From: a virus
Lineage: Duplodnaviria; Heunggongvirae; Uroviricota; Caudoviricetes
IMG/VR virus record: IMGVR_UViG_2913192161_000003
Location: 1 to 38,083 of that record
Length of the DNA stretch: 38,083 nt
Reading direction: 5' to 3' (one strand)
The number at the start of each line of letters is the position of its first letter. Positions within the stretch are counted from its first letter, which is position 1. The notes under the pieces are model-generated. The model searched no databases. It had not been told where the DNA came from and saw nothing but the letters and a program-made list of their open reading frames with translations. The position numbers were made by a program, and so were the translations under genes. Below, one piece after another: positions 2,142 to 14,215 of this stretch.

Positions 2142-2566
2142 AGCACCGCCTCAAATTCGTCAATGTAGAGATTGGCCTTTATCAGCCTGCTGCGACGTGC
2201 AGCTTTATCCATGCATTCCTGATGAGCTTTTTTAGAAGCATGGAGAACGGCGCTGCGAGTGCAAAGACGCGTCTTTCCTTGTGGGACAACTACTTTGGCC
2301 GGGGTTACTAAGTTGAATTGCCGATCGACAATTCCCGATTCAGTAACCCAGGTAGGAGATGCCTCAAGACGGGCAACCTTGCCGGTTCTGCGCGTAAGGT
2401 TCTTTGCAGAGCGGTTAAACTCGATGAGCGTTACGCCGAACTTCTCAGCGATTTCGTTTCCGGTTACCGGGCGGCCTCGCGTCTGAATCATCCAGATAAC
2501 GCGTTCACGGAGGCCGGAGAATTGCCCGGTGCGCCCGGGACTGCGGTAAAAGGGTGTGCGTTTCAT
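2138..2566 (-). CDS. Hypothetical early protein, possible HTH DNA-binding
   Basis: 142-aa ORF coupled (ATGA) to the exonuclease gene upstream; basic, HTH-like segment (TGNEIAEKFGVTLIEFNRSAKNL). Confidence 0.5.
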   Translation of the reverse strand: MKRTPFYRSPGRTGQFSGLRERVIWMIQTRGRPVTGNEIAEKFGVTLIEFNRSAKNLTRRTGKVARLEASPTWVTESGIVDRQFNLVTPAKVVVPQGKTRLCTRSAVLHASKKAHQECMDKAARRSRLIKANLYIDEFEAVL

Positions 2567-3180
2567 GCTGCACGCTCAGTAATTTTCTGAATCTCCGAAT
2601 CCAGATCAGCAAGGAAGCTCTTAACTTCAGATTCGATTTCGCCCGCGAGTTCTTCATCGAAATGAATGCGCTTCTTGAAATAGGCGAGGTCAGGCGGAAG
2701 GCGATCATCGAAACTAACGAAATCACACCATTTACGCCCGGTGCACATCATCTGTGCATGCATTTGCAGCATGTACTGGCGCTTTGGCTCGCCAGTTTTC
2801 AGAGTTTCAAGATGGGTCCAGGTGTTTGGGCATTTGATTTCGATAAGCCCGTCGTCGTTAACAAGTCCGTCCGGGCTGGCTGCGAATCCGGGGATGGTTG
2901 GGTGATCGATGAGTCCAACCTCAGTTATTTCCGCATCGAACTCATTCAGCGCGTACATCTCGCGCGCCACTGGCTCTAGCTCTGTGCCGCGCATCATCGC
3001 GGCATTGGAGAATCCTTCTTCCAGTTTCCCGGTCAGCCGCTGGCAAATCAGCTCAGCCATGTAGTTCTGGCGGCTTGCTGAGTAGCCAGACTTAGTACGG
3101 GCCATGACATCAGCCAAACGGCTGGCTGTGACCTTTCCGCAGCGCGCGGCAAACCATTCTGGTGTGCGTTGTTCCATCAC
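2563..3180 (-). CDS. YqaJ-family phage exonuclease (lambda Exo analogue)
   Basis: 205 aa; paired immediately downstream of RecT as in YqaJ/RecT recombination modules; start overlaps the RecT stop. Confidence 0.75.
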   Translation of the reverse strand: MMEQRTPEWFAARCGKVTASRLADVMARTKSGYSASRQNYMAELICQRLTGKLEEGFSNAAMMRGTELEPVAREMYALNEFDAEITEVGLIDHPTIPGFAASPDGLVNDDGLIEIKCPNTWTHLETLKTGEPKRQYMLQMHAQMMCTGRKWCDFVSFDDRLPPDLAYFKKRIHFDEELAGEIESEVKSFLADLDSEIQKITERAA

Positions 3181-3923
3181 TCAGCCTCCGTCTCTGCGGC
3201 ATTGATAGGTTCGGCGTTGTCGACAGCAAGACTCATGCTATACATGCGTCGCTTCTCAACTGCGCCGATCACCTGCTTCTCTTCTGCGCTCAGCGCCACC
3301 CAGAACTCCTGATACTTCACAGTTCCAAGGCGGGCGGCAGACTCACCTTTAGCGATTAGTTCGGGGCGGCGACTGTCTGATTCATGGCCTGCATGAACTT
3401 CCGCTGTTGTCCCTTCAATAACTCGCTCGGCTTCGTCCTGGTCAAAGATGCCAGCGAACCCAAAGGCCAGACGCGCGCACTGAATCAGTGTCTTGTGGCG
3501 AAGCATGCGGGTAGGGTGGGACTGCCATGGCTGAGTATTGCGTTTACACTCGCCCATGTACTCGGTGACAATGGTCGGGTGCTTACGGTCTTTGCGGTAA
3601 ATCTTGCAGGTGCACGCGCCTTCTTCTTTGTCATAAGAGAATTCCATGCCGTCAAACTGCGGGTGCTCGTTGATAATTCGCGCCCATCCATCCACACCGA
3701 CAACCGGGACAATCCCGCCTTTATCGGGGAATGCGTAAATCTCTTTGGTCCATGGGTTCAGACCGTACTGGTTGGCGACGATCAGCAGGGCTGTAAACTG
3801 CTCGTCCGTGACGTTGCCACCTTTAAACGCTGTATTCTTCAGCGTATTCATCAGGTCTGTACCGGCATCCATGCCGAGGCGTGCGGCCAGTTTCCCGGCC
3901 ATGGTGGAAAGTGCAGTGCTCAT
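3177..3923 (-). CDS. recT: RecT-family single-strand annealing recombinase
   Basis: ORF 3177..3938; start placed at ATG 3923 (MSTALSTMAGK) with GAGGGG RBS 7 nt upstream; RecT-like sequence and position. Confidence 0.8.
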   Translation of the reverse strand: MSTALSTMAGKLAARLGMDAGTDLMNTLKNTAFKGGNVTDEQFTALLIVANQYGLNPWTKEIYAFPDKGGIVPVVGVDGWARIINEHPQFDGMEFSYDKEEGACTCKIYRKDRKHPTIVTEYMGECKRNTQPWQSHPTRMLRHKTLIQCARLAFGFAGIFDQDEAERVIEGTTAEVHAGHESDSRRPELIAKGESAARLGTVKYQEFWVALSAEEKQVIGAVEKRRMYSMSLAVDNAEPINAAETEAE

Positions 3924-3941
3924 TGTTAATCCCCTCAAAAA

Positions 3942-4226
3942 TTAAAACGGGCAGCCGGTACGGTGCTCCCAGTCGTGCTCTGCCTGGGCGTAGGCCACTG
4001 CCGAAACGAAGTCGTTATAGGCCTCGCCAGCTTTATCGCTGCGAAGTCCTTCGTATGGGCTGGAGTCAATCGGTACGGAGAAGTGGAAGAGGCCAGACGG
4101 CTCTTTGGGCATCATGTCGATGATTTGCTGCGCCCGGTCGTCGATCCACTTCTCTTTCTCATCGGTGAGCAGCTGTTCAACCCAGCGCCGATCTTCGATG
4201 CGGTCGTAAGTGAGGAATGCGTTCAT
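3942..4226 (-). CDS. Hypothetical protein
   Basis: ORF 3942..4268; internal ATG (MNAFLTYDR) at 4226 avoids overlap with the upstream gene. Confidence 0.4.
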   Translation of the reverse strand: MNAFLTYDRIEDRRWVEQLLTDEKEKWIDDRAQQIIDMMPKEPSGLFHFSVPIDSSPYEGLRSDKAGEAYNDFVSAVAYAQAEHDWEHRTGCPF

Positions 4227-4233
4227 GGTTGCC

Positions 4234-5205
4234 TCAGTAATGAATTTTCGCGCAGGGGAGCAGGTCATCTTTCAGAGCGGTAAGTACTTCGATAGCCTGT
4301 TCGCGAGTTAAGCTGGTGTGGCTGGTGAGCGCGTTAACGATGTTGGTGCCGACCGTCTTCCGGTGCTTCACGTCTGCTTCTCGCTTCGCCTGCTCATCGG
4401 CTTTGCGTTTCTCTTCCGCCAGGCGAGCATCTTCGGCCTGTTTTGCTTTCAGACGCTCAGCTTCAACCGCCGTGACTTTTTCACGCTCCGCCCTCTCTTC
4501 TGCTTCCTGCTTCTCACGTGCCGCACGCTGTTCCGCTTCAATACGCTGGCGTTCCGCAGCTTCAGCGCGCGCTTTCTCTCCAGCTTCACGGCGCGCCGCC
4601 GCTTCAATCTCTGCCTTGTGCTTCGCTTCTGCATCTCGGCGGGCTTGTTCTGCCGCTTCACGCTTCAGCTGCTCATCACGTTCACGCTGTGCTTGTTCCA
4701 CCAGGCGACGCTGTTCTTCGCGGTCACGGTCGAAAGCATCGTTCATCAGCAGGGCCATCTCGTGGTCTGCTTTAAACTTGGCCGCCAGCTCCTGATCTAA
4801 CTTGATGTTCATCTCCAGCGCTTCGGCGTGCAGCGCGTTCATGGCTTCTTCAGCCTTGATGTGTTCCTGCTCGGCTTCCCATTCTGTGAGTGGGCGGCGG
4901 GTCGCATCGCGCAGCTCGTCACACGCATCAACGAAACGCTTAATCTCGGCCTCAGCAGGACGCACAGCCTCTTTAAGACGCTTCAGGTACTCACGGCCTG
5001 GTTTTTCGATTGCCGTCTTGCTGCGGGATACCTGCGCCGCCAGAGAGGCGATACGGTCACGGCCTTTCTTCGTGGACAGGTCTGGTACTTCGTTTACTGC
5101 CATGCGGATTTGTTCGAGGTAAGCATCTAGGCCGCCCGCTACGTAAAGCACTGGTGCCTGCTCCGGCTTGATTTCGATGACAGTTAAGTCCGTTACTTCG
5201 CTCAT
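4234..5205 (-). CDS. Coiled-coil phage protein (DUF1351-like), E/A/R/K-rich
   Basis: ORF 4234..5319; start placed at ATG 5205 (MSEVTDL) with AGGAGA RBS; long charged helical repeat region; commonly found upstream of recT in enterobacterial prophages (recall). Confidence 0.6.
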   Translation of the reverse strand: MSEVTDLTVIEIKPEQAPVLYVAGGLDAYLEQIRMAVNEVPDLSTKKGRDRIASLAAQVSRSKTAIEKPGREYLKRLKEAVRPAEAEIKRFVDACDELRDATRRPLTEWEAEQEHIKAEEAMNALHAEALEMNIKLDQELAAKFKADHEMALLMNDAFDRDREEQRRLVEQAQRERDEQLKREAAEQARRDAEAKHKAEIEAAARREAGEKARAEAAERQRIEAEQRAAREKQEAEERAEREKVTAVEAERLKAKQAEDARLAEEKRKADEQAKREADVKHRKTVGTNIVNALTSHTSLTREQAIEVLTALKDDLLPCAKIHY

Positions 5206-5275
5206 GGTTTCTCCTGAAATTTGGATGTGCAGATCCCGCCCGCAGAAAGCCAGGCTGATCGGTTGAATAGGGTGG

Positions 5276-5485
5276 TTAGTGCTGGATAGGGTTTCCGCGT
5301 CCGTCGAGAAGGACGTCAATCACGCAATCACTGAGACGGATGATTTCTGCATCGGTGTGCAGGTATACCCATTTTCTCTCCTGGATTACTGCTGAGACGC
5401 GATAGGTGCGGCCTTTGTGCAGTGCCATCATGCCGGGAGTGACGCACTGGCGAATCATTGGAGTCGTTCCGTAGTGAGACATCAT
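5276..5485 (-). CDS. Hypothetical small protein (69 aa)
   Basis: ORF in track; start ATGATG overlaps the stop of the upstream mini-ORF. Confidence 0.4.
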   Translation of the reverse strand: MMSHYGTTPMIRQCVTPGMMALHKGRTYRVSAVIQERKWVYLHTDAEIIRLSDCVIDVLLDGRGNPIQH

Positions 5486-5646
5486 TTCTTACCCTCCACC
5501 TGAGCCAGTAAACCAGCAACATGCATCTGCCAGCGGTTCAGCGTGACTTGCTCTCGCGGGTTGGTGAGCGACGTTAGCCGCCATTCGTTATTGTTAATGG
5601 CGCAGCACTTTACGGTGTACTGCTTGCCGTTGTGGGTGACTGTCAT
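5482..5646 (-). CDS. Small hypothetical protein (54 aa)
   Basis: Hand-translated (MTVTHNGKQYTVKCC...); coupled by ATGA overlaps to both flanking ORFs. Confidence 0.3.
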   Translation of the reverse strand: MTVTHNGKQYTVKCCAINNNEWRLTSLTNPREQVTLNRWQMHVAGLLAQVEGKK

Positions 5647-5772
5647 GAAGCAGCCTTAAGAGCCTTTTCGGCTTCTTTGATACGGGCTGCGGTGCCAGCA
5701 TTCTGAGCAATTTCATTAAGGTGACGAGCGTCTTCCAAAAGCTTAGCGATTATCTCTTTCAGGTCTGTCATA
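5643..5772 (-). CDS. Small hypothetical protein (42 aa), first ORF of the leftward operon
   Basis: Hand-translated (MTDLKEIIAKLLEDARHL...); AGAGGA RBS upstream of ATG at 5772. Confidence 0.3.
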
Positions 5773-6109
5773 AATCCTCTTGGCCTTATCGCGGCGAACG
5801 GAACGGTTAATACAAGACTTCTGCGCTAATGGGCGGTGGATAGCCGCCGTTCATAACTGAGCGTCCTCTGAGAAGCCGCTGAGGTATGAAAAAAGCCGCA
5901 TTGGGCTGCTTGTGTTGAAATCCTTTGTGGTGCGGTGCAGGGATGCTTATCTTCCCAGTTACTGTCTGGCAGCTGCATTTCACCGCACTACAAAACATTC
6001 CAGATTGTTGCCGGGGTATTTATCCATGCCCGGCGCATGGTTTCCTTGCTTTCCACAGACAAAGGAAATTGCTGAATTGGCTATTCCACAGGCAATTAAG
6101 GAATGATTA

Positions 6110-6337
6110 ATGAGCACTAGTACGCTGAAAATTCACTGCCCCGATTGCGGAAGTGAACTCATCAAGAGACCCGACGATTTCGACTTTGATAGTAATTTCG
6201 TGGATGTATCCTGTGCTGATTGCGGGAGGAACATAACGAAGGACGACGTTATCGAACAGGCCACTAAGGCTGTCAAGAAGCAGGTCGATGACATGCTGCG
6301 GAAGACCTTCAAAGGACACGGATGGAAGTTTAAGTAG
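6110..6337 (+). CDS. Small zinc-ribbon protein (CPDCG-N20-CADCG)
   Basis: 75 aa with two CxDCG motifs; AAGGAA RBS 8 nt upstream; opposite in orientation to the early-left operon. Confidence 0.55.
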   Translation: MSTSTLKIHCPDCGSELIKRPDDFDFDSNFVDVSCADCGRNITKDDVIEQATKAVKKQVDDMLRKTFKGHGWKFK

Positions 6338-6799
6338 CTTTATGGCTTCCTCCATTTTCTGAACTGCCTCTCTGGCGTCGAGCGTGAGCATCATCGGCGC
6401 CCTTATAACATCTCCCATATCTCACCTCTCTGTCGTTACCCGCTGATGCGGGAGAAATGCTTTGGTGCTGACTCCCCACAAGGAAGCAGGGAAGGCCGTC
6501 GTCGCCTTGGTGAGCCATTAACTCACCAACTAGCTGATAACCGTCTGCCAGCCCAAAACATTCCCTGTATTGGTCAGCGTCAACTCCCTGCCAGTGTTGC
6601 CCGTTCTCACGCCGTTCTCGCTCTCGCGCGGGGATATTCTCTCACCGACCGGATCGCACCCGGTGATACAGCACGTTTACGTGTAGGGGTCTTAACCGGT
6701 CATTGACGCTGTAAATCTGCATGTTGTTAAAAAGCAGGCGACTTGCTGTCCGCCGCTGGCTAACTTCGCTCAGCTGTCGATGTTTCGTTTCGATAGGCT

Positions 6800-6905
6800 A
6801 ATAATAGCTATGGCGATTATCGTAGTCAATCGCTTAAACGATATTAATGATAGGTAAGGCGATAAATGTGTGATTGATATGGCGATTTTTAATTAAAATT
6901 ATTTA
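6800..6905. promoter_or_regulatory. Operator-like repeat cluster (OL-like) and putative promoter upstream of the 6943 gene
   Basis: Three same-orientation GGCGAT half-sites (about 6811, 6857, 6882) and a near-palindrome ATCGCTTAAACGAT (about 6828-6841), matching the half-site of the OR palindromes at 8057-8097; TTGATA (6874-6879) as a possible -35. Confidence 0.45.
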
Positions 6906-6942
6906 CGTGGTAATCTGTTTTTTTCGGTGAAGGAGTGAATAA

Positions 6943-7317
6943 ATGGAACTTCAAGAGTGGGTTGATAGGTTGCGGTGGCTGAGCCATGAACAGATCGTTC
7001 AAGTTCATTTCGGGCTTCAGGAAGAGATTAAGAAATATTACAAACTGAGGGATGAAGCTAATAATCTTGCGCGCGCTGAGCATCTGTGTGAGCAAATGAT
7101 TGCTCTTTCAGAATTGGCATTTCCGGCGCTGAAGAGGGCTCATGATAAAAGAGTAGAAGAATATGAGTCGTTAACTGGCAACAAGTACCCGAGCGAATTC
7201 TATCCGCCATCACACTATGGATTTTCTCAGTTAGTGGTGATCTTGAAGAAAAGAAAGGATTACAAGCGGATTGAAGAACTTCGTGAAAAGATGATTAAAG
7301 AGGGGTGGAGGTGCTAA
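6943..7317 (+). CDS. Hypothetical helical protein (124 aa), AT-rich cargo gene convergent on cI
   Basis: Strong RBS GAAGGAG upstream of ATG; lower GC than flanks; sits where rexAB lie in lambda but on the opposite strand; followed by hairpin GCCCGG-TAA-CCGGGC (7318-7332). Confidence 0.6.
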   Translation: MELQEWVDRLRWLSHEQIVQVHFGLQEEIKKYYKLRDEANNLARAEHLCEQMIALSELAFPALKRAHDKRVEEYESLTGNKYPSEFYPPSHYGFSQLVVILKKRKDYKRIEELREKMIKEGWRC

Positions 7318-7331
7318 GCCCGGTAACCGGG

Positions 7332-8024
7332 CTATGCGAATCTTTTATAATCTATCGACTGTCGTAAAAGCACTCTTGCCATTACATAGAACTGGTCTTC
7401 ATCACCAGGCTCAACATACCACTTCTCGTAAATAGGGTTATCAGAGATTACAGCCAGGCGGTCACGCTGCATCTGAAGTCGCTTGACGTGTAATGTTTTA
7501 CCAAAAGCAAAGACATAAACGCCATCACTGTCGAATGCAGTGACGCCGATATCAACAAAGATTTGGTCTCCCGGAGAAATTGTTCCATCCATGCTGTCAC
7601 CGCTAACTGTGATGACCTTTATATTTTCAGCTGGGCGGTTACCGAACAGAGAGCGCGCTTGCTCAGATGTGTATTCAATAGCTCTAATGGTTTCAATGAA
7701 ATCGCTGGTAACTAAGGCACCCGGGCCCGCACTGGCTTTAACGTCGAGAACATCCACGCGATAGATCCCACTGTTTGGCTTTCTAACCTTGTATAGTGTA
7801 GGGGATTCATTTGCGCTACCGGCAAACATTTCACCTTCGCCAGTAGACAGCCATTCCGGACGCACACCGAGAACCGATGCAATTTCTACAGTTTTGCGTG
7901 AGCTGCTCGCACCATTCAATAGCTTATTAACGCTGGATTGCGCCATCCCTACAGCTTTTGCGAGCCTGCCCTGCGTATATCCTGCGGAAGACATCGCATG
8001 CGCTAAGCGCTCAGAGAATTCCAT
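7332..8024 (-). CDS. cI: CI-like prophage repressor (HTH + S24 LexA-like peptidase domain)
   Basis: N-terminal HTH (QGRLAKAVGMAQSSVNKLL), C-terminal S24 motifs (SGDSM serine, downstream lysine); divergent from the Cro-like gene; start taken at ATG 8024 (track begins on GTG 8030). Confidence 0.85.
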   Translation of the reverse strand: MEFSERLAHAMSSAGYTQGRLAKAVGMAQSSVNKLLNGASSSRKTVEIASVLGVRPEWLSTGEGEMFAGSANESPTLYKVRKPNSGIYRVDVLDVKASAGPGALVTSDFIETIRAIEYTSEQARSLFGNRPAENIKVITVSGDSMDGTISPGDQIFVDIGVTAFDSDGVYVFAFGKTLHVKRLQMQRDRLAVISDNPIYEKWYVEPGDEDQFYVMARVLLRQSIDYKRFA

Positions 8025-8056
8025 ACACACCCCTTAAAAACACTTTCTTTAATCCT

Positions 8057-8097
8057 ATCGCCTATGCGATTATTTAGCAAAAAATCGCATAGGCGAT
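8057..8097. promoter_or_regulatory. OR-like operators: two 14-bp palindromes ATCGC-N4-GCGAT
   Basis: ATCGCCTATGCGAT (8057-8070) and ATCGCATAGGCGAT (8084-8097), 27 bp centre to centre, in the cI/cro divergent intergenic region. Confidence 0.6.
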
Positions 8098-8125
8098 TGA
8101 CATTCGCCAGGGTGATAATCATAAT
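8097..8125 (+). promoter_or_regulatory. Putative PR promoter for the Cro-like gene
   Basis: -35 TTGACA (8097-8102), 17-bp spacer, -10 CATAAT (8120-8125); the -35 abuts the second operator. Confidence 0.55.
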
Positions 8126-8152
8126 CGCTTAAAATTGATAGTTGAGGTGATT

Positions 8153-8383
8153 ATGAAAAACCCCGCAGTAGAAAAGGCGATTGCCATTGCTGGCAGCCAG
8201 AAAGAGCTGGCGAAACGTTGTGGGAAGGCCCAATCAACGATCTGTGACTGGCTGAATGGCAAGAAGCGAATTTCGCCAGTCCATGTGCTCGACCTTGTTA
8301 ATGCGGTTGATGGGGAGATTAAGGCTTACGAGTTTCGTCCAGATCTCCCAGCAATTTTTCCGCATCCGGGCTCCATCGCCTGA
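8153..8383 (+). CDS. cro: Cro-like HTH regulator
   Basis: ORF 8135..8383; start taken at ATG 8153 (MKNPAVEKAI) after GAGGTG RBS; HTH segment (QKELAKRCGKAQSTICDWLNGKK). Confidence 0.7.
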   Translation: MKNPAVEKAIAIAGSQKELAKRCGKAQSTICDWLNGKKRISPVHVLDLVNAVDGEIKAYEFRPDLPAIFPHPGSIA

Positions 8384-8481
8384 GCCGCGCAACAGCTCAC
8401 CGCTCTTTAACAATCTGGAACCCTATTAAACCGGCTGAGTAATCAGCCAATTATTAACTATTCAACGATAGAGATAGCGAT

Positions 8482-9024
8482 ATGCAATCACTTACGTATC
8501 AACAGAGTACCGGAATACACAGCAGCGTGCTGATAAATCGCGCTCAACCGGAACCGGACAATAATCATGAGTTGATCCGCGCGGCGGTTCGCGGCTGGTC
8601 AGCTGCTATCGACAATCAGGACGTGGTGTCAGCGCTCATCATCAACGAATATCGGGAGCAGGGCGGGACTGCTATCAGCTTCCCGGAAGACATCAGCCGG
8701 GCGCGCCAGAAGCTCTTTCGCTTCCTGGATAACCGCTTCGACTCCGAGCAGTACCGAGAAAACGTGCGGAAACTGACTCCAGCAATCATGGCTGTTCTGC
8801 CGCTGGAATATCGGGAAAAGTTGATGCCGGAAGATAGCCTAATGGCTCGTCTGGTACGCATGGAGAAGGAAACCAGCGAAGCGAAAATTGCCGTCGCAAT
8901 GGATGCGCCACGGCATCAGAAGCTGAAAGAACTGAGCGAGGGGATTGTGGAGATGTACCGCGTTGACCCTGGCTTAACCGGTCCGCTGATGGAAATGGTT
9001 CAAATGATGTTGGGGGTTGTATGA
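8482..9024 (+). CDS. CII-like phage regulatory protein (CP76-like), tentative
   Basis: 180-aa ORF between cro and the replication genes; family by recall and position only. Confidence 0.45.
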   Translation: MQSLTYQQSTGIHSSVLINRAQPEPDNNHELIRAAVRGWSAAIDNQDVVSALIINEYREQGGTAISFPEDISRARQKLFRFLDNRFDSEQYRENVRKLTPAIMAVLPLEYREKLMPEDSLMARLVRMEKETSEAKIAVAMDAPRHQKLKELSEGIVEMYRVDPGLTGPLMEMVQMMLGVV

Positions 9025-9109: not shown

Positions 9110-10111
9110 ATGACAAATATCGCCAGAGTATTCAACTTCCCGGCGCCTGAGCCGGGATACTTCCGGAGCAACAGAATGGAGAACAAAAAGTTCGGCCATT
9201 TCTCTCTGTTCAGAAGTCTCCTTCAAACAGATTGGGCTAAAGATACCGCAAAAATGGCTCTCTGGGTTCGATTGCTGGGAGAGGCTTCCTACCGCGTCAG
9301 AACAGTTGAATTTGCCAATAAGCAATGGGAGCTATCAAATGGTCAACTAGTCACTACAGCGGCCATTCTGGCAAGAAAACTTCGTGATCAGGACGGGAAA
9401 GAAAAGAGTCCACAAGCAGTAACCAGAATGCTTAATTTCTTCATCAAAGAGGGGATGATAAGCACTGAAGGAAACCGGTTTGGAACAGTGATAACCATCA
9501 CAAATTACGCCTCGTATCAGGTCGCTTTACCCGATGAACCTTCCGATGAACCTTCCGACAAAGGAAAAGGCAGTAATGGCGCGGGTTTGAGGTTGGTAGC
9601 CGATGAACCATCCGATAAACCAACCGATGAACAGAACAAGACATTAACTAACAATAATAAAAACAATAAGACCTCTACGTCCGAGAATTCTGACGAATCC
9701 TCTGACAAGCTTGGAAAGAAACCTCCTGTCTTGAAACCTGAAGCGGCAATTCAGAGCGGCACAAAGTGGGGTAACTCAGAAGACCTTCGCTGTGCAGAGT
9801 GGCTCTTCGATGTCGTGCAAAGCATCTCTTCGTCTGCCAGAAAACCGAACTATGCAGCATGGACCAATGATATTCGCCTGATGCGAGAGCGTGACCAGAG
9901 AACTCACAAGGAGATCGCCACACTGTTCAAGTGGGCCTGTGAAGACAAATTCTGGAAGGGAAACGTGCTTTGCCCTTCAACACTGCGTGAGAAGTGGACG
10001 CAGCTCGATATCCAGCGCACGAAACAAATCACTGGTGAAACCAGAACGACAGGTAACAAGCCAGAACTCGACTTCAACAACACTGACTGGGCCTATGAGG
10101 TTATGCGATGA
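9110..10111 (+). CDS. O: Replication initiator (lambda O-like)
   Basis: 333 aa; internal acidic linker encoded by the iteron repeats; immediately followed by, and ATGA-coupled to, the P-like gene. Confidence 0.7.
   Translation: MTNIARVFNFPAPEPGYFRSNRMENKKFGHFSLFRSLLQTDWAKDTAKMALWVRLLGEASYRVRTVEFANKQWELSNGQLVTTAAILARKLRDQDGKEKSPQAVTRMLNFFIKEGMISTEGNRFGTVITITNYASYQVALPDEPSDEPSDKGKGSNGAGLRLVADEPSDKPTDEQNKTLTNNNKNNKTSTSENSDESSDKLGKKPPVLKPEAAIQSGTKWGNSEDLRCAEWLFDVVQSISSSARKPNYAAWTNDIRLMRERDQRTHKEIATLFKWACEDKFWKGNVLCPSTLREKWTQLDIQRTKQITGETRTTGNKPELDFNNTDWAYEVMR
9531..9670. repeat. Putative origin of replication: five 12-bp iterons plus AT-rich tract inside the O-like gene
   Basis: CCGATGAACCTT x2 (9531-9554), CCGATGAACCAT, CCGATAAACCAA, CCGATGAACAGA (9600-9635), then AT-rich 9636-9670. 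Confidence 0.6.
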
Positions 10112-13419: not shown

Positions 13420-13526
13420 CCAGAGACGAGATAGCACGGTACCAGGCAGAAAGCGTTAAGCGCGCCAGCATGCCACCAATAGCAAAGCACACTAAAACCA
13501 GCCAACCACAGAAGGAAGCCGCTTAA
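13416..13526 (+). CDS. Small hypothetical protein (36 aa)
   Basis: GTG start overlapping the rusA stop; stop overlaps the Q start. Confidence 0.25.
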   Translation: MTRDEIARYQAESVKRASMPPIAKHTKTSQPQKEAA

Positions 13527-14215
13527 TGAACACTCAATACCTCGAATACGTTCGCCAGCAGCTGATTGTGGCCACGGCAGATATGAGCGGAGCAACGAAA
13601 GGTCAACTGGTAGCATTCGCCGAGAACGCGATGTTTACAGCCACTCTACGCAGCCGGGGCAGGATGAAGGTGGTCAACCCGGTGAACGGGCGTTTAATGA
13701 ATCCCAATAACCCGCCGATCCCCGGCCAGCAGTCACGCGCGAAAGGCTCCCACATTCCACTGGTCAACCCGGTGGAGTTCTCTACAGCATCATGGCGCCG
13801 CGCGGTACTGTCGTTGGACGAACACCAGAGGGCGTGGCTGCTATGGAGCTACAGCGAGAACGTGCGCTTCGAATATCAGGTGGCGATAACCCAGTGGGCG
13901 TGGGCAGAGTTCCTGGAGCAGCTCGTCGCGAAGAAGATGGCTGGCAAGACGATGGAGCGCCTGAAGAAGCTTATCTGGCTGGCGGCGCAGGACGTCAAAG
14001 CGGAGTTGGCGGGTAAGGATGCCTACGAATACCAGGCGCTGGCAGAACTTGCTGGCGTGGCGAAATCCACTTGGACAGAAACCTATCTTCCTCACTGGCT
14101 GGCAATGCGCAACAGCTTTAAGCGGCTCGATAGCGGCTCGCTTATGGCCGTAACGCGATCACGATCACAACAAAAGTCGACAAATTATCAGCAAGATATT
14201 GCAAAACCGAACTGA
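13526..14215 (+). CDS. Late-gene antiterminator Q-like protein
   Basis: 229 aa at the end of the nin region, immediately upstream of tandem intrinsic terminators and the lysis cassette; family by position and recall. Confidence 0.6.
   Translation: MNTQYLEYVRQQLIVATADMSGATKGQLVAFAENAMFTATLRSRGRMKVVNPVNGRLMNPNNPPIPGQQSRAKGSHIPLVNPVEFSTASWRRAVLSLDEHQRAWLLWSYSENVRFEYQVAITQWAWAEFLEQLVAKKMAGKTMERLKKLIWLAAQDVKAELAGKDAYEYQALAELAGVAKSTWTETYLPHWLAMRNSFKRLDSGSLMAVTRSRSQQKSTNYQQDIAKPN

Follow-up and report, generated by a model that had tools for sequence, protein, structure and literature searches.

Early antitermination decides the expression of the recombination and replication genes and, via Q, of the late and toxin genes in lambdoid phages. 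How early terminators are passed without a recognisable N gene is an open question in many of these phages, and the literature offers 'maybe put-like' (PMC12315714). The window, the whole 38,083-nt stretch of DNA analysed here, is a phi80-like lambdoid prophage, and the genes flanking the leader were identified by PHROG matches. The original prediction had described positions 6340-6780 as a GC-rich, structured stretch without a convincing ORF, lying between the OL region and the early-left genes. We analysed what this stretch is.

The location was borne out. The genes for cI, Cro, CII, O and Q lie on one flank and those for Bet and the exonuclease on the other (Table 1), and a pL-like promoter aligned with the annotated pL -35 and -10 elements of phi80, indicating that 6340-6780 is the beginning of the leftward early transcript. 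The minus strand of 6419-6794 is the untranslated leader of this pL transcript, and its predicted start is where conservation among phages of different immunity begins. The distinct composition that had been pointed out was also recovered, with a GC content of 0.53-0.57 in 6300-6800 versus 0.36-0.40 in 6700-7000 on the operator side. About 3.6 kb around the leader showed 98.7% identity to a contig of Escherichia sp. E1V33. On the immunity side, a 124-aa ORF (6943-7317, plus strand; phrog_22434) lies between pL and the repressor gene and reads towards cI, and at OR (8053-8100) operator half-sites form a palindrome that is long and perfect, TATCGCCTATGCGATT...AATCGCATAGGCGATT. Matches of Rfam microRNA models to this palindrome (E = 0.05-3) were the only Rfam 'hits' obtained and were rejected as false positives.

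Table 1. Positions of features at and around the pL leader in the window.
Feature	Position	Strand	Basis or remark
Exonuclease	2563-3180	-	PHROG match
Bet-like annealing protein	3177-3938	-	PHROG match
Weak terminator-like hairpin + U6, GCAGCC-CAAU-GCGGC UUUUUU	5910-5889	-	by eye, tentative
ECs_2282-family zinc-ribbon gene	6110-6337	+	NCBIfam NF047912, 81 bits; antisense to pL transcript
Hairpin-SD block: hairpin CCCGC-AUCA-GCGGG (6452-6439), then UAACGACAGAGAGGUGAG (Shine-Dalgarno), AUG at 6418	6452-6421	-	
Three-way-junction motif, 105 nt	6561-6457	-	
Outer stem of three-way junction	6561-6547 with 6472-6457	-	
Arm A, 16S rRNA helix 11 mimic	6542-6494	-	contains hairpin 6507-6529
Arm B, variable hairpin	6492-6473	-	
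Structured core domain, 133 nt	6709-6577	-	RNAalifold consensus and covariation
Helix Pa	6709-6704 with 6582-6577	-	
Helix Pb	6699-6694 with 6592-6587	-	
Helix Pc	6688-6686 with 6602-6600	-	
Hairpin P1, CACG-UAAA-CGUG	6683-6672	-	phi80 'nutL core'
Hairpin P2	6665-6643	-	nearly invariant
Hairpin P3	6631-6612	-	variable sequence
boxA TGCTTTTTAACAA	6736-6724	-	exact match to TGCTYTTTAACAA
Start-proximal leader block, small hairpins GCUGA-GCGAAG-UUAGC and GGCGGACAGCAAGUCGCC	6738-6794	-	
pL-like sigma-70 promoter TTGACT-17-TATTAT	6829-6801	-	10/12 matches; predicted start ~A6794
CI-like repressor	7332-8030	-	PHROG match
Cro-like	8135-8383	+	PHROG match
Rightward boxA CGCTCTTTAACAA	8401-8413	+	just after cro
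Hairpin GGCTGA-GTAA-TCAGCC	8433-8448	+	nutR-like site with boxA; without core domain, without N gene
CII-like	8482-9024	+	PHROG match
O-like	9110-10111	+	PHROG match
Q-like	13526-14215	+	PHROG match

No credible gene was found in 6338-6794 on either strand, in agreement with the earlier reading of the stretch as non-coding. The plus-strand ORF 6446-6706 was rejected as a gene: it had no family match, and its homologues carry indels of 1, 7 and 9 nt across the ORF. The minus-strand ORF 6107-6418, which overlaps 6340-6418, was rejected as the antisense shadow of the zinc-ribbon gene. Compared with HK639, the zinc-ribbon frame showed 71% identity, with 18, 7 and 38 nucleotide differences at codon positions 1, 2 and 3, and the minus frame showed 43% identity to HK639 gp45. 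Together with the family match, these values indicate that the zinc-ribbon frame is the selected one and the minus-strand ORF its shadow. In HK639 the full-length shadow ORF is annotated as the gene gp45, and the zinc-ribbon cassette there has a different position relative to the block of hairpin and Shine-Dalgarno sequence described below.

From ~6794 to the first early-left gene, which starts at 5771, the pL transcript carries no supported ORF over ~1 kb, and such an untranslated leader would be exposed to Rho. The terminator-like hairpin at 5910-5889 is situated in the interval that separates the antisense gene from the first early-left ORF, and it fell below the thresholds of the terminator scan. 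A conserved non-coding block at ~5772-5870 on the minus strand, 5' of the first early-left gene, contains GGCGGCUAUCCACCGCC. Several related loci show this block as a recurring spurious ORF (...GGHPPPISAEVL...), and a further conserved element of RNA or DNA may lie here.

The original prediction had failed to identify a canonical boxA. The minus strand does carry one, an exact match to the consensus TGCTYTTTAACAA 58 nt after the predicted pL start; boxA is the known NusB/NusE site. It is preceded by the start-proximal leader block, which HK639-type leaders share as far as ...GCCAGCGGCG. The GGCGGACAGCAAGUCGCC hairpin of this block, with the U-rich boxA after it, scored as terminator-like and was the sole such site inside 6340-6780. 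The suggestion of a region with nutL and terminators thus held for its first part, as the stretch is homologous to the phi80 nutL region, and failed for the terminators. The boxA was kept in all subtypes though their upstream flanks differ; homology begins at boxA, which marks the 5' edge of the module.

Fourteen nucleotides after boxA a structured core domain of 133 nt begins. The RNAalifold consensus of 29 non-redundant sequences is a junction closed by three stacked helices (Pa, Pb and Pc) and bearing three hairpins (P1, P2 and P3). On a curated version of this structure, 96.4% of the alignment cells were paired, compared to 28-42% in slid controls, and changes on both sides of a pair numbered 12 versus 0-5. 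With 69 distinct sequences, the corresponding values were 98.7% versus 26-45% and 12 versus 0-7; most of the aligned sequences are closely related, and several of these compensatory changes are single events inherited by many. None of 500 shuffles reached the observed covariation score on either alignment. Helix Pa is formed by at least three kinds of complementary pairs (GCGUCA/UGGCGC, GCACAU/GUGUGC and GCACUC/GAG.GGUGC), and P3 is swapped for unrelated hairpin sequences in other subtypes. Several G-U pairs of the core are possible only in the minus-strand RNA, indicating that the structure belongs to the pL-sense transcript. Folding stability was not exceptional for the core alone (z = -1.35) and modest for the whole leader (z = -2.57); the evidence for structure is comparative.

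The search for covariance and for compensatory changes in related prophages, proposed with the original prediction, was thereby carried out, and such changes were found. They lie in the 6577-6709 core, the main conserved structure, which that account of 6340-6780 had missed, and in the basal helix of a second motif described below. The idea of 'a different antitermination or RNA element' in the original prediction fits a covarying domain linked to boxA. No Rfam family matched 6340-6800 at E<=10, and none matched three more loci with the core (phi80 and two diverged members) at E<=5. A covariance model of the core scored 225 bits in the window and 233 bits in phi80. Its match in the window was confined to 6546-6747, and each phage locus carried exactly one copy; with this model no second or rightward copy was found in the window or in related loci. 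A T-loop reading of P2 was rejected, as a U8-to-C change keeps the pair with G16. An alternative pairing of P2, ACCGG with CCGGU, was considered; a subtype with the P2 loop CGGCGAA still fits the irregular-helix model, and P2 may switch between conformations. The core was also tried as a mimic of rRNA or the rrn leader and rejected, since neither its likeness to 16S h41 (CCUCGCGAGAGC) nor that to a segment of 23S rRNA rose above the null level.

The first ~210 nt of the transcript were 97-98% identical in phi80, HK225, Klebsiella phage KO-TP1 and the E. coli M37H prophage, whose operators and downstream genes differ despite the common leader start. From boxA on, identity was ~92% in the TL-2011c/P13374 group of O104:H4-type Stx2a phages and 73-80% in Klebsiella phage ST13-OXA48phi12.2 and Edwardsiella phage Edno5. 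Pattern scans detected the core in more than 120 IMG/VR contigs and in nine species-representative genomes of Enterobacter, Kluyvera and Escherichia. A 900-nt leader query matched 275 of 5426 complete E. coli genomes, phi80-derived laboratory strains among them, and plasmids gave a single match at 86%. The range of the core domain is that of Enterobacterales phages. With most copies more than 95% identical and the folding energy of the core unremarkable, the module could be functionless mosaic debris that looks conserved through recent divergence. We regard this as extremely improbable, because subtypes diverged to 73-80% identity still form the helices, with compensatory changes and replaced hairpins, and homology starts exactly at boxA while the flanks recombine freely around an intact module.

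Many family members, among them loci L007, L018, L028, L045 and L066, carry a strong Shine-Dalgarno sequence and then a mini-ORF of 2-5 codons ~30-60 nt after the core, for example AGAGGAGUGAUUCCAAUGAAGCACUAA, which reads MKH*; the window lacks this feature. In O104:H4-type Stx2a phages (TL-2011c, positions 3446-5775 of locus L005) a strong terminator comes after the boxA-domain and precedes a Rha-family gene, and an N gene is not annotated. Where lambda has rex, between the cI gene and pL, these phages carry a BsuBI-type restriction-modification pair.

If boxA and P1 made up a classical nut site, with P1 as boxB bound by a phage antiterminator (phi80 'N', or unrecognised analogues elsewhere), a partner gene would be looked for nearby. 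The phi80 records do annotate a nutL boxA and a 12-nt 'nutL core', which equals P1, and gene N follows directly; the P1 hairpin covaries and its loop is A-rich, and N proteins diverge fast, which makes detection hard. However, across 129 loci no universal partner gene was found within 3 kb of the element. A cI-like repressor family, in 110 of the 129 loci, was the only near-universal neighbour, whereas the phi80 N family occurred in 8, and 20 or more first ORFs without relation to one another were found behind the same leader. The left operon of the window contains no arginine-rich N-like ORF, and nothing in the window showed similarity to phi80 N, which itself lacks an arginine-rich N-terminus. 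Queries with approximate sequences of lambda N, P22 gp24 and Nun gave chance matches only. A strictly N-dependent nut site therefore fits poorly, also because no rightward copy exists. Moreover, P1 sits 40 nt after boxA with a loop that is not GNRA-like, and the RNA is near-invariant while the candidate partners vary, the opposite of what is seen in lambda, P22 and phage 21. We consider a classical nut site unlikely. That P2 hardly varies between phages whose genes are unrelated points instead to a host target.

The window does have a rightward boxA followed by a hairpin just after cro, and such a pair was present in 8 of 99 related loci. The stem of this GGCTGA hairpin resembles the GCUGA...UUAGC hairpin near the pL start, and post-cro sites with variable loops also occur in a few HK639-type phages.

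A scan for the start-proximal block showed ~100 IMG/VR contigs with the same leader start and the same downstream sequence, in which an HK639-type put RNA replaces boxA and the domain. This put RNA is homologous to HK022 putL (score 76 vs null 13.9). The put-type loci searched by the covariance model contained no core domain, bar two recombinant loci. In three loci (L158, L161 and L203) the same slot holds a third cassette (GGAGUUAGAUGACCGCUUAGAGCCGCC...) unrelated to these two, and in another (L193) it holds a boxA and, after it, a domain of ~115 nt that is of yet another kind and is closed by GCAUCCGA/UCGGAUGC. Several structured RNAs thus seem to be alternatives for the leader slot. Strong intrinsic terminators were found within 2 kb downstream of the element in 84 of 111 loci on the sense strand, versus 24 of 111 on the antisense strand. 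TL-2011c has one strong terminator between the element and the first gene, 239 nt after P2; the window itself has a weak candidate only.

The coupling of boxA to the domain, the slot shared with put and the downstream terminators argue for cis-acting antitermination via host factors. We judge it about an even chance that boxA and the 133-nt domain form one unit, a cis-acting processive antitermination signal (anti-Rho and anti-terminator) that works through boxA and host factors; antitermination activity, Nus-factor binding and polymerase contact are all three what we infer from these comparisons. NusB/NusE of the host would bind boxA while the RNA emerges, and the folded domain, above all P2, would contact RNA polymerase or a Nus factor and so stand in for N-boxB of lambda or the put RNA of HK022/HK639. 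The modified polymerase would then cross ~1 kb of untranslated RNA, the antisense gene and terminators to reach the recombination genes. Several observations speak against this proposal: each phage has a single left copy, unlike nut and HK022 put, a gene named N lies just downstream in phi80, the window has no more than a weak terminator candidate, and most of the aligned sequences are closely related. The site may need a phage protein, to which phi80 N would be a pointer, and the shared slot could reflect mosaic recombination at conserved flanks and not equivalent function.

The two hairpins on which the original prediction had focused were confirmed as such: TTGGTGAG/CTCACCAA at 6507-6514/6522-6529 forms a perfect 8-bp stem with a 7-nt loop, and CCCGC-TGAT-GCGGG is present at 6439-6452. 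Both are conserved in other phages and are thus more than chance. They do not belong to the nut-like part; the first forms the end of an arm that mimics helix 11 of 16S rRNA, and the second precedes a Shine-Dalgarno sequence. The helix-11 mimic and the hairpin-SD block are conserved modules separate from the boxA-domain.

The first lead to the helix-11 likeness was a BLAST match to Salmonella 16S rRNA. Window positions 6547-6499 were identical to 16S nt 225-272 at 43 of 49 positions (score 66 vs null 21.8 +/- 2.7), and this arm was the only significant similarity of the leader to a whole rrn operon. The phage copies have AUCAGCUAG in place of 16S AUUAGCUAG. The three-way-junction pattern matched 108 IMG/VR contigs in at least four sequence classes, and the same fold was predicted in four of them: that of lambdoid pL leaders, that of Yersinia phage vB_YenM_30.14, that of Jedunavirus ZCEC13 and relatives, and one with a match in Shewanella phage vB_SbaS_Y11 and a weaker, partial one in Moraxella phage Mcat16. 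The basal helix, which the search pattern left free, covaries (GC/AU/UG/CG, GC/CG/GU and UG/GC/UA/CG), and the inner pair 58/80 switches from U-A to A-U. In lambdoid leaders ~82 nt separate the motif from the hairpin-SD block downstream, and the motif may come after the boxA-domain or after a put cassette. Two helix-11-mimic loci gave no Rfam match at E<=10, and a literature search for the mimic found nothing. In the 30S subunit, the region to which ribosomal protein S17 binds includes helix 11.

The hairpin-SD block, a CCCGC hairpin followed by UAACGACAGAGGGUAAGG and a start codon, was present in 32 of 116 unique loci. It fronts at least 20 different N-termini, phi80 'N' and HK639 gene 44 also among the genes behind it, and in the window it precedes the shadow ORF 6107-6418. 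The block looks like a portable translation-initiation joint.

A neighbouring module that mimics rRNA suggests protein-binding decoys, which bears on what the 133-nt domain does. It is a compact domain with a long closing stem in the first RNA made upon induction. It might be a stable or processed leader RNA that titrates a protein or small RNA of the host in trans, as a decoy or sponge, or a 5' stability or processing element of the pL mRNA. We hold this to be quite improbable, since downstream of the domain there is neither a terminator nor a conserved 3' end and the sequences vary, boxA is rigidly linked to its 5' edge, the slot is shared with a known cis-acting antiterminator, and no Rfam small RNA matched. 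Even less probable, and in our view a long shot, is a ligand- or factor-sensing aptamer, with the four-way junction gating pL elongation by host physiology in the manner of a riboswitch. It would suit a 5' leader with a junction of several helices whose joining strands are highly conserved and whose peripheral hairpins vary, but no conserved expression platform (terminator/antiterminator pair or Shine-Dalgarno sequestration) lies downstream, no known riboswitch class was matched, and the range is narrow, namely Enterobacterales phages.

Under the antitermination proposal, the boxA-domain is a concrete, testable candidate for the missing antitermination mechanism of N-less lambdoid phages. That the leader holds two apparently undescribed families, with the boxA-domain as a third class of protein-independent antiterminator RNA and, jointly, the helix-11 motif as a true rRNA mimic, is a tentative and rather doubtful reading. 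If true, the boxA-domain would work with host Nus factors alone, in a class after put and EAR, and would control early expression in phi80-like and O104:H4-type Stx2a phages; as it is present in phi80, it is also present in DH5alpha and DH10B. The helix-11 mimic would capture a host factor that binds helix 11, for example ribosomal protein S17, and unrelated phages of Escherichia, Klebsiella, Yersinia and Shewanella would share the copy, which a Moraxella phage matches in part. Phages rarely copy a piece of ribosomal RNA; the mimic would be such a case and could point to a recruited or neutralised host factor.

Sequence-string and keyword searches of the literature other than the primary phi80 and HK639 papers found nothing on the boxA-domain. 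The 133-nt covarying domain is absent from the phi80 annotation, Rfam and the searchable literature, while its location and boxA were already known through phi80 nutL. The independence from phi80 N, the exchange with put cassettes and the helix-11 motif are likewise not in annotation, Rfam or searchable literature, and the helix-11 motif may be more novel than the boxA-domain.

Compared with known systems, the window element resembles lambda-type nut sites in having a canonical boxA in the early leader with a hairpin nearby. It differs in lacking a GNRA-like boxB at the usual spacing (the P1 loops are UAAA, AAAA, CAAA and UUUAAU), an arginine-rich N and a matching nutR copy, and its structured part is far larger. 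The boxB-boxA-boxC leader of rrn operons has an almost identical boxA, with a hairpin directly upstream as in the phi80-like subtype, and both would protect a long untranslated transcript, as is proposed for the window. A GU-rich, boxC-like element was not seen in the window, however, the upstream hairpin is absent from other subtypes, and comparison of the core with rrn leader, spacer and rRNA sequences gave no similarity. Helix 11 of 16S rRNA (nt ~240-286) is matched by Arm A at 43 of 49 positions of the enterobacterial sequence with the same predicted fold, including internal loops, whereas the phage copy sits in a three-way junction with an unrelated second hairpin and a covarying basal helix.

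Put RNA is an established protein-independent antiterminator of ~70 nt with two stem-loops and does not need boxA (PMC9378689). HK022 putL and putR and the putL-like RNA of HK639 are likewise cis RNAs at the pL transcript start of phages without a lambda-type N, and the HK639-type put occupies the same slot just downstream of pL, between the same flanking leader sequences as the window element. HK639 is annotated with putL only, and the window element too has one copy, on the left. Put RNAs act in cis on RNA polymerase, at its beta' zinc-binding domain, and need neither phage nor Nus proteins. The core, by contrast, is a 133-nt junction of six helices that always follows boxA. It showed no sequence similarity to put (scores 16-17 vs null ~15), and homology between the two was rejected because the alignment was at null level and a GAACGG(G)CAA motif seen by eye was not above chance.

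With phi80 nutL (M11919, 'nutL regulatory signal', 278 nt; JX871397, 'nutL boxA' and 'nutL core') the relation is one of common membership. The phi80 annotation names a 9-nt boxA and the 12-nt core only, as putative, and leaves the 133-nt domain unannotated. The window differs in its operators and immunity, lacks the phi80 N gene and has the helix-11 mimic where phi80 carries other sequence. With 97-98% identity over ~290 nt in two blocks, and with boxA, all helices of the domain and the hairpin-SD block in common, the window element is a member of the phi80 nutL group.
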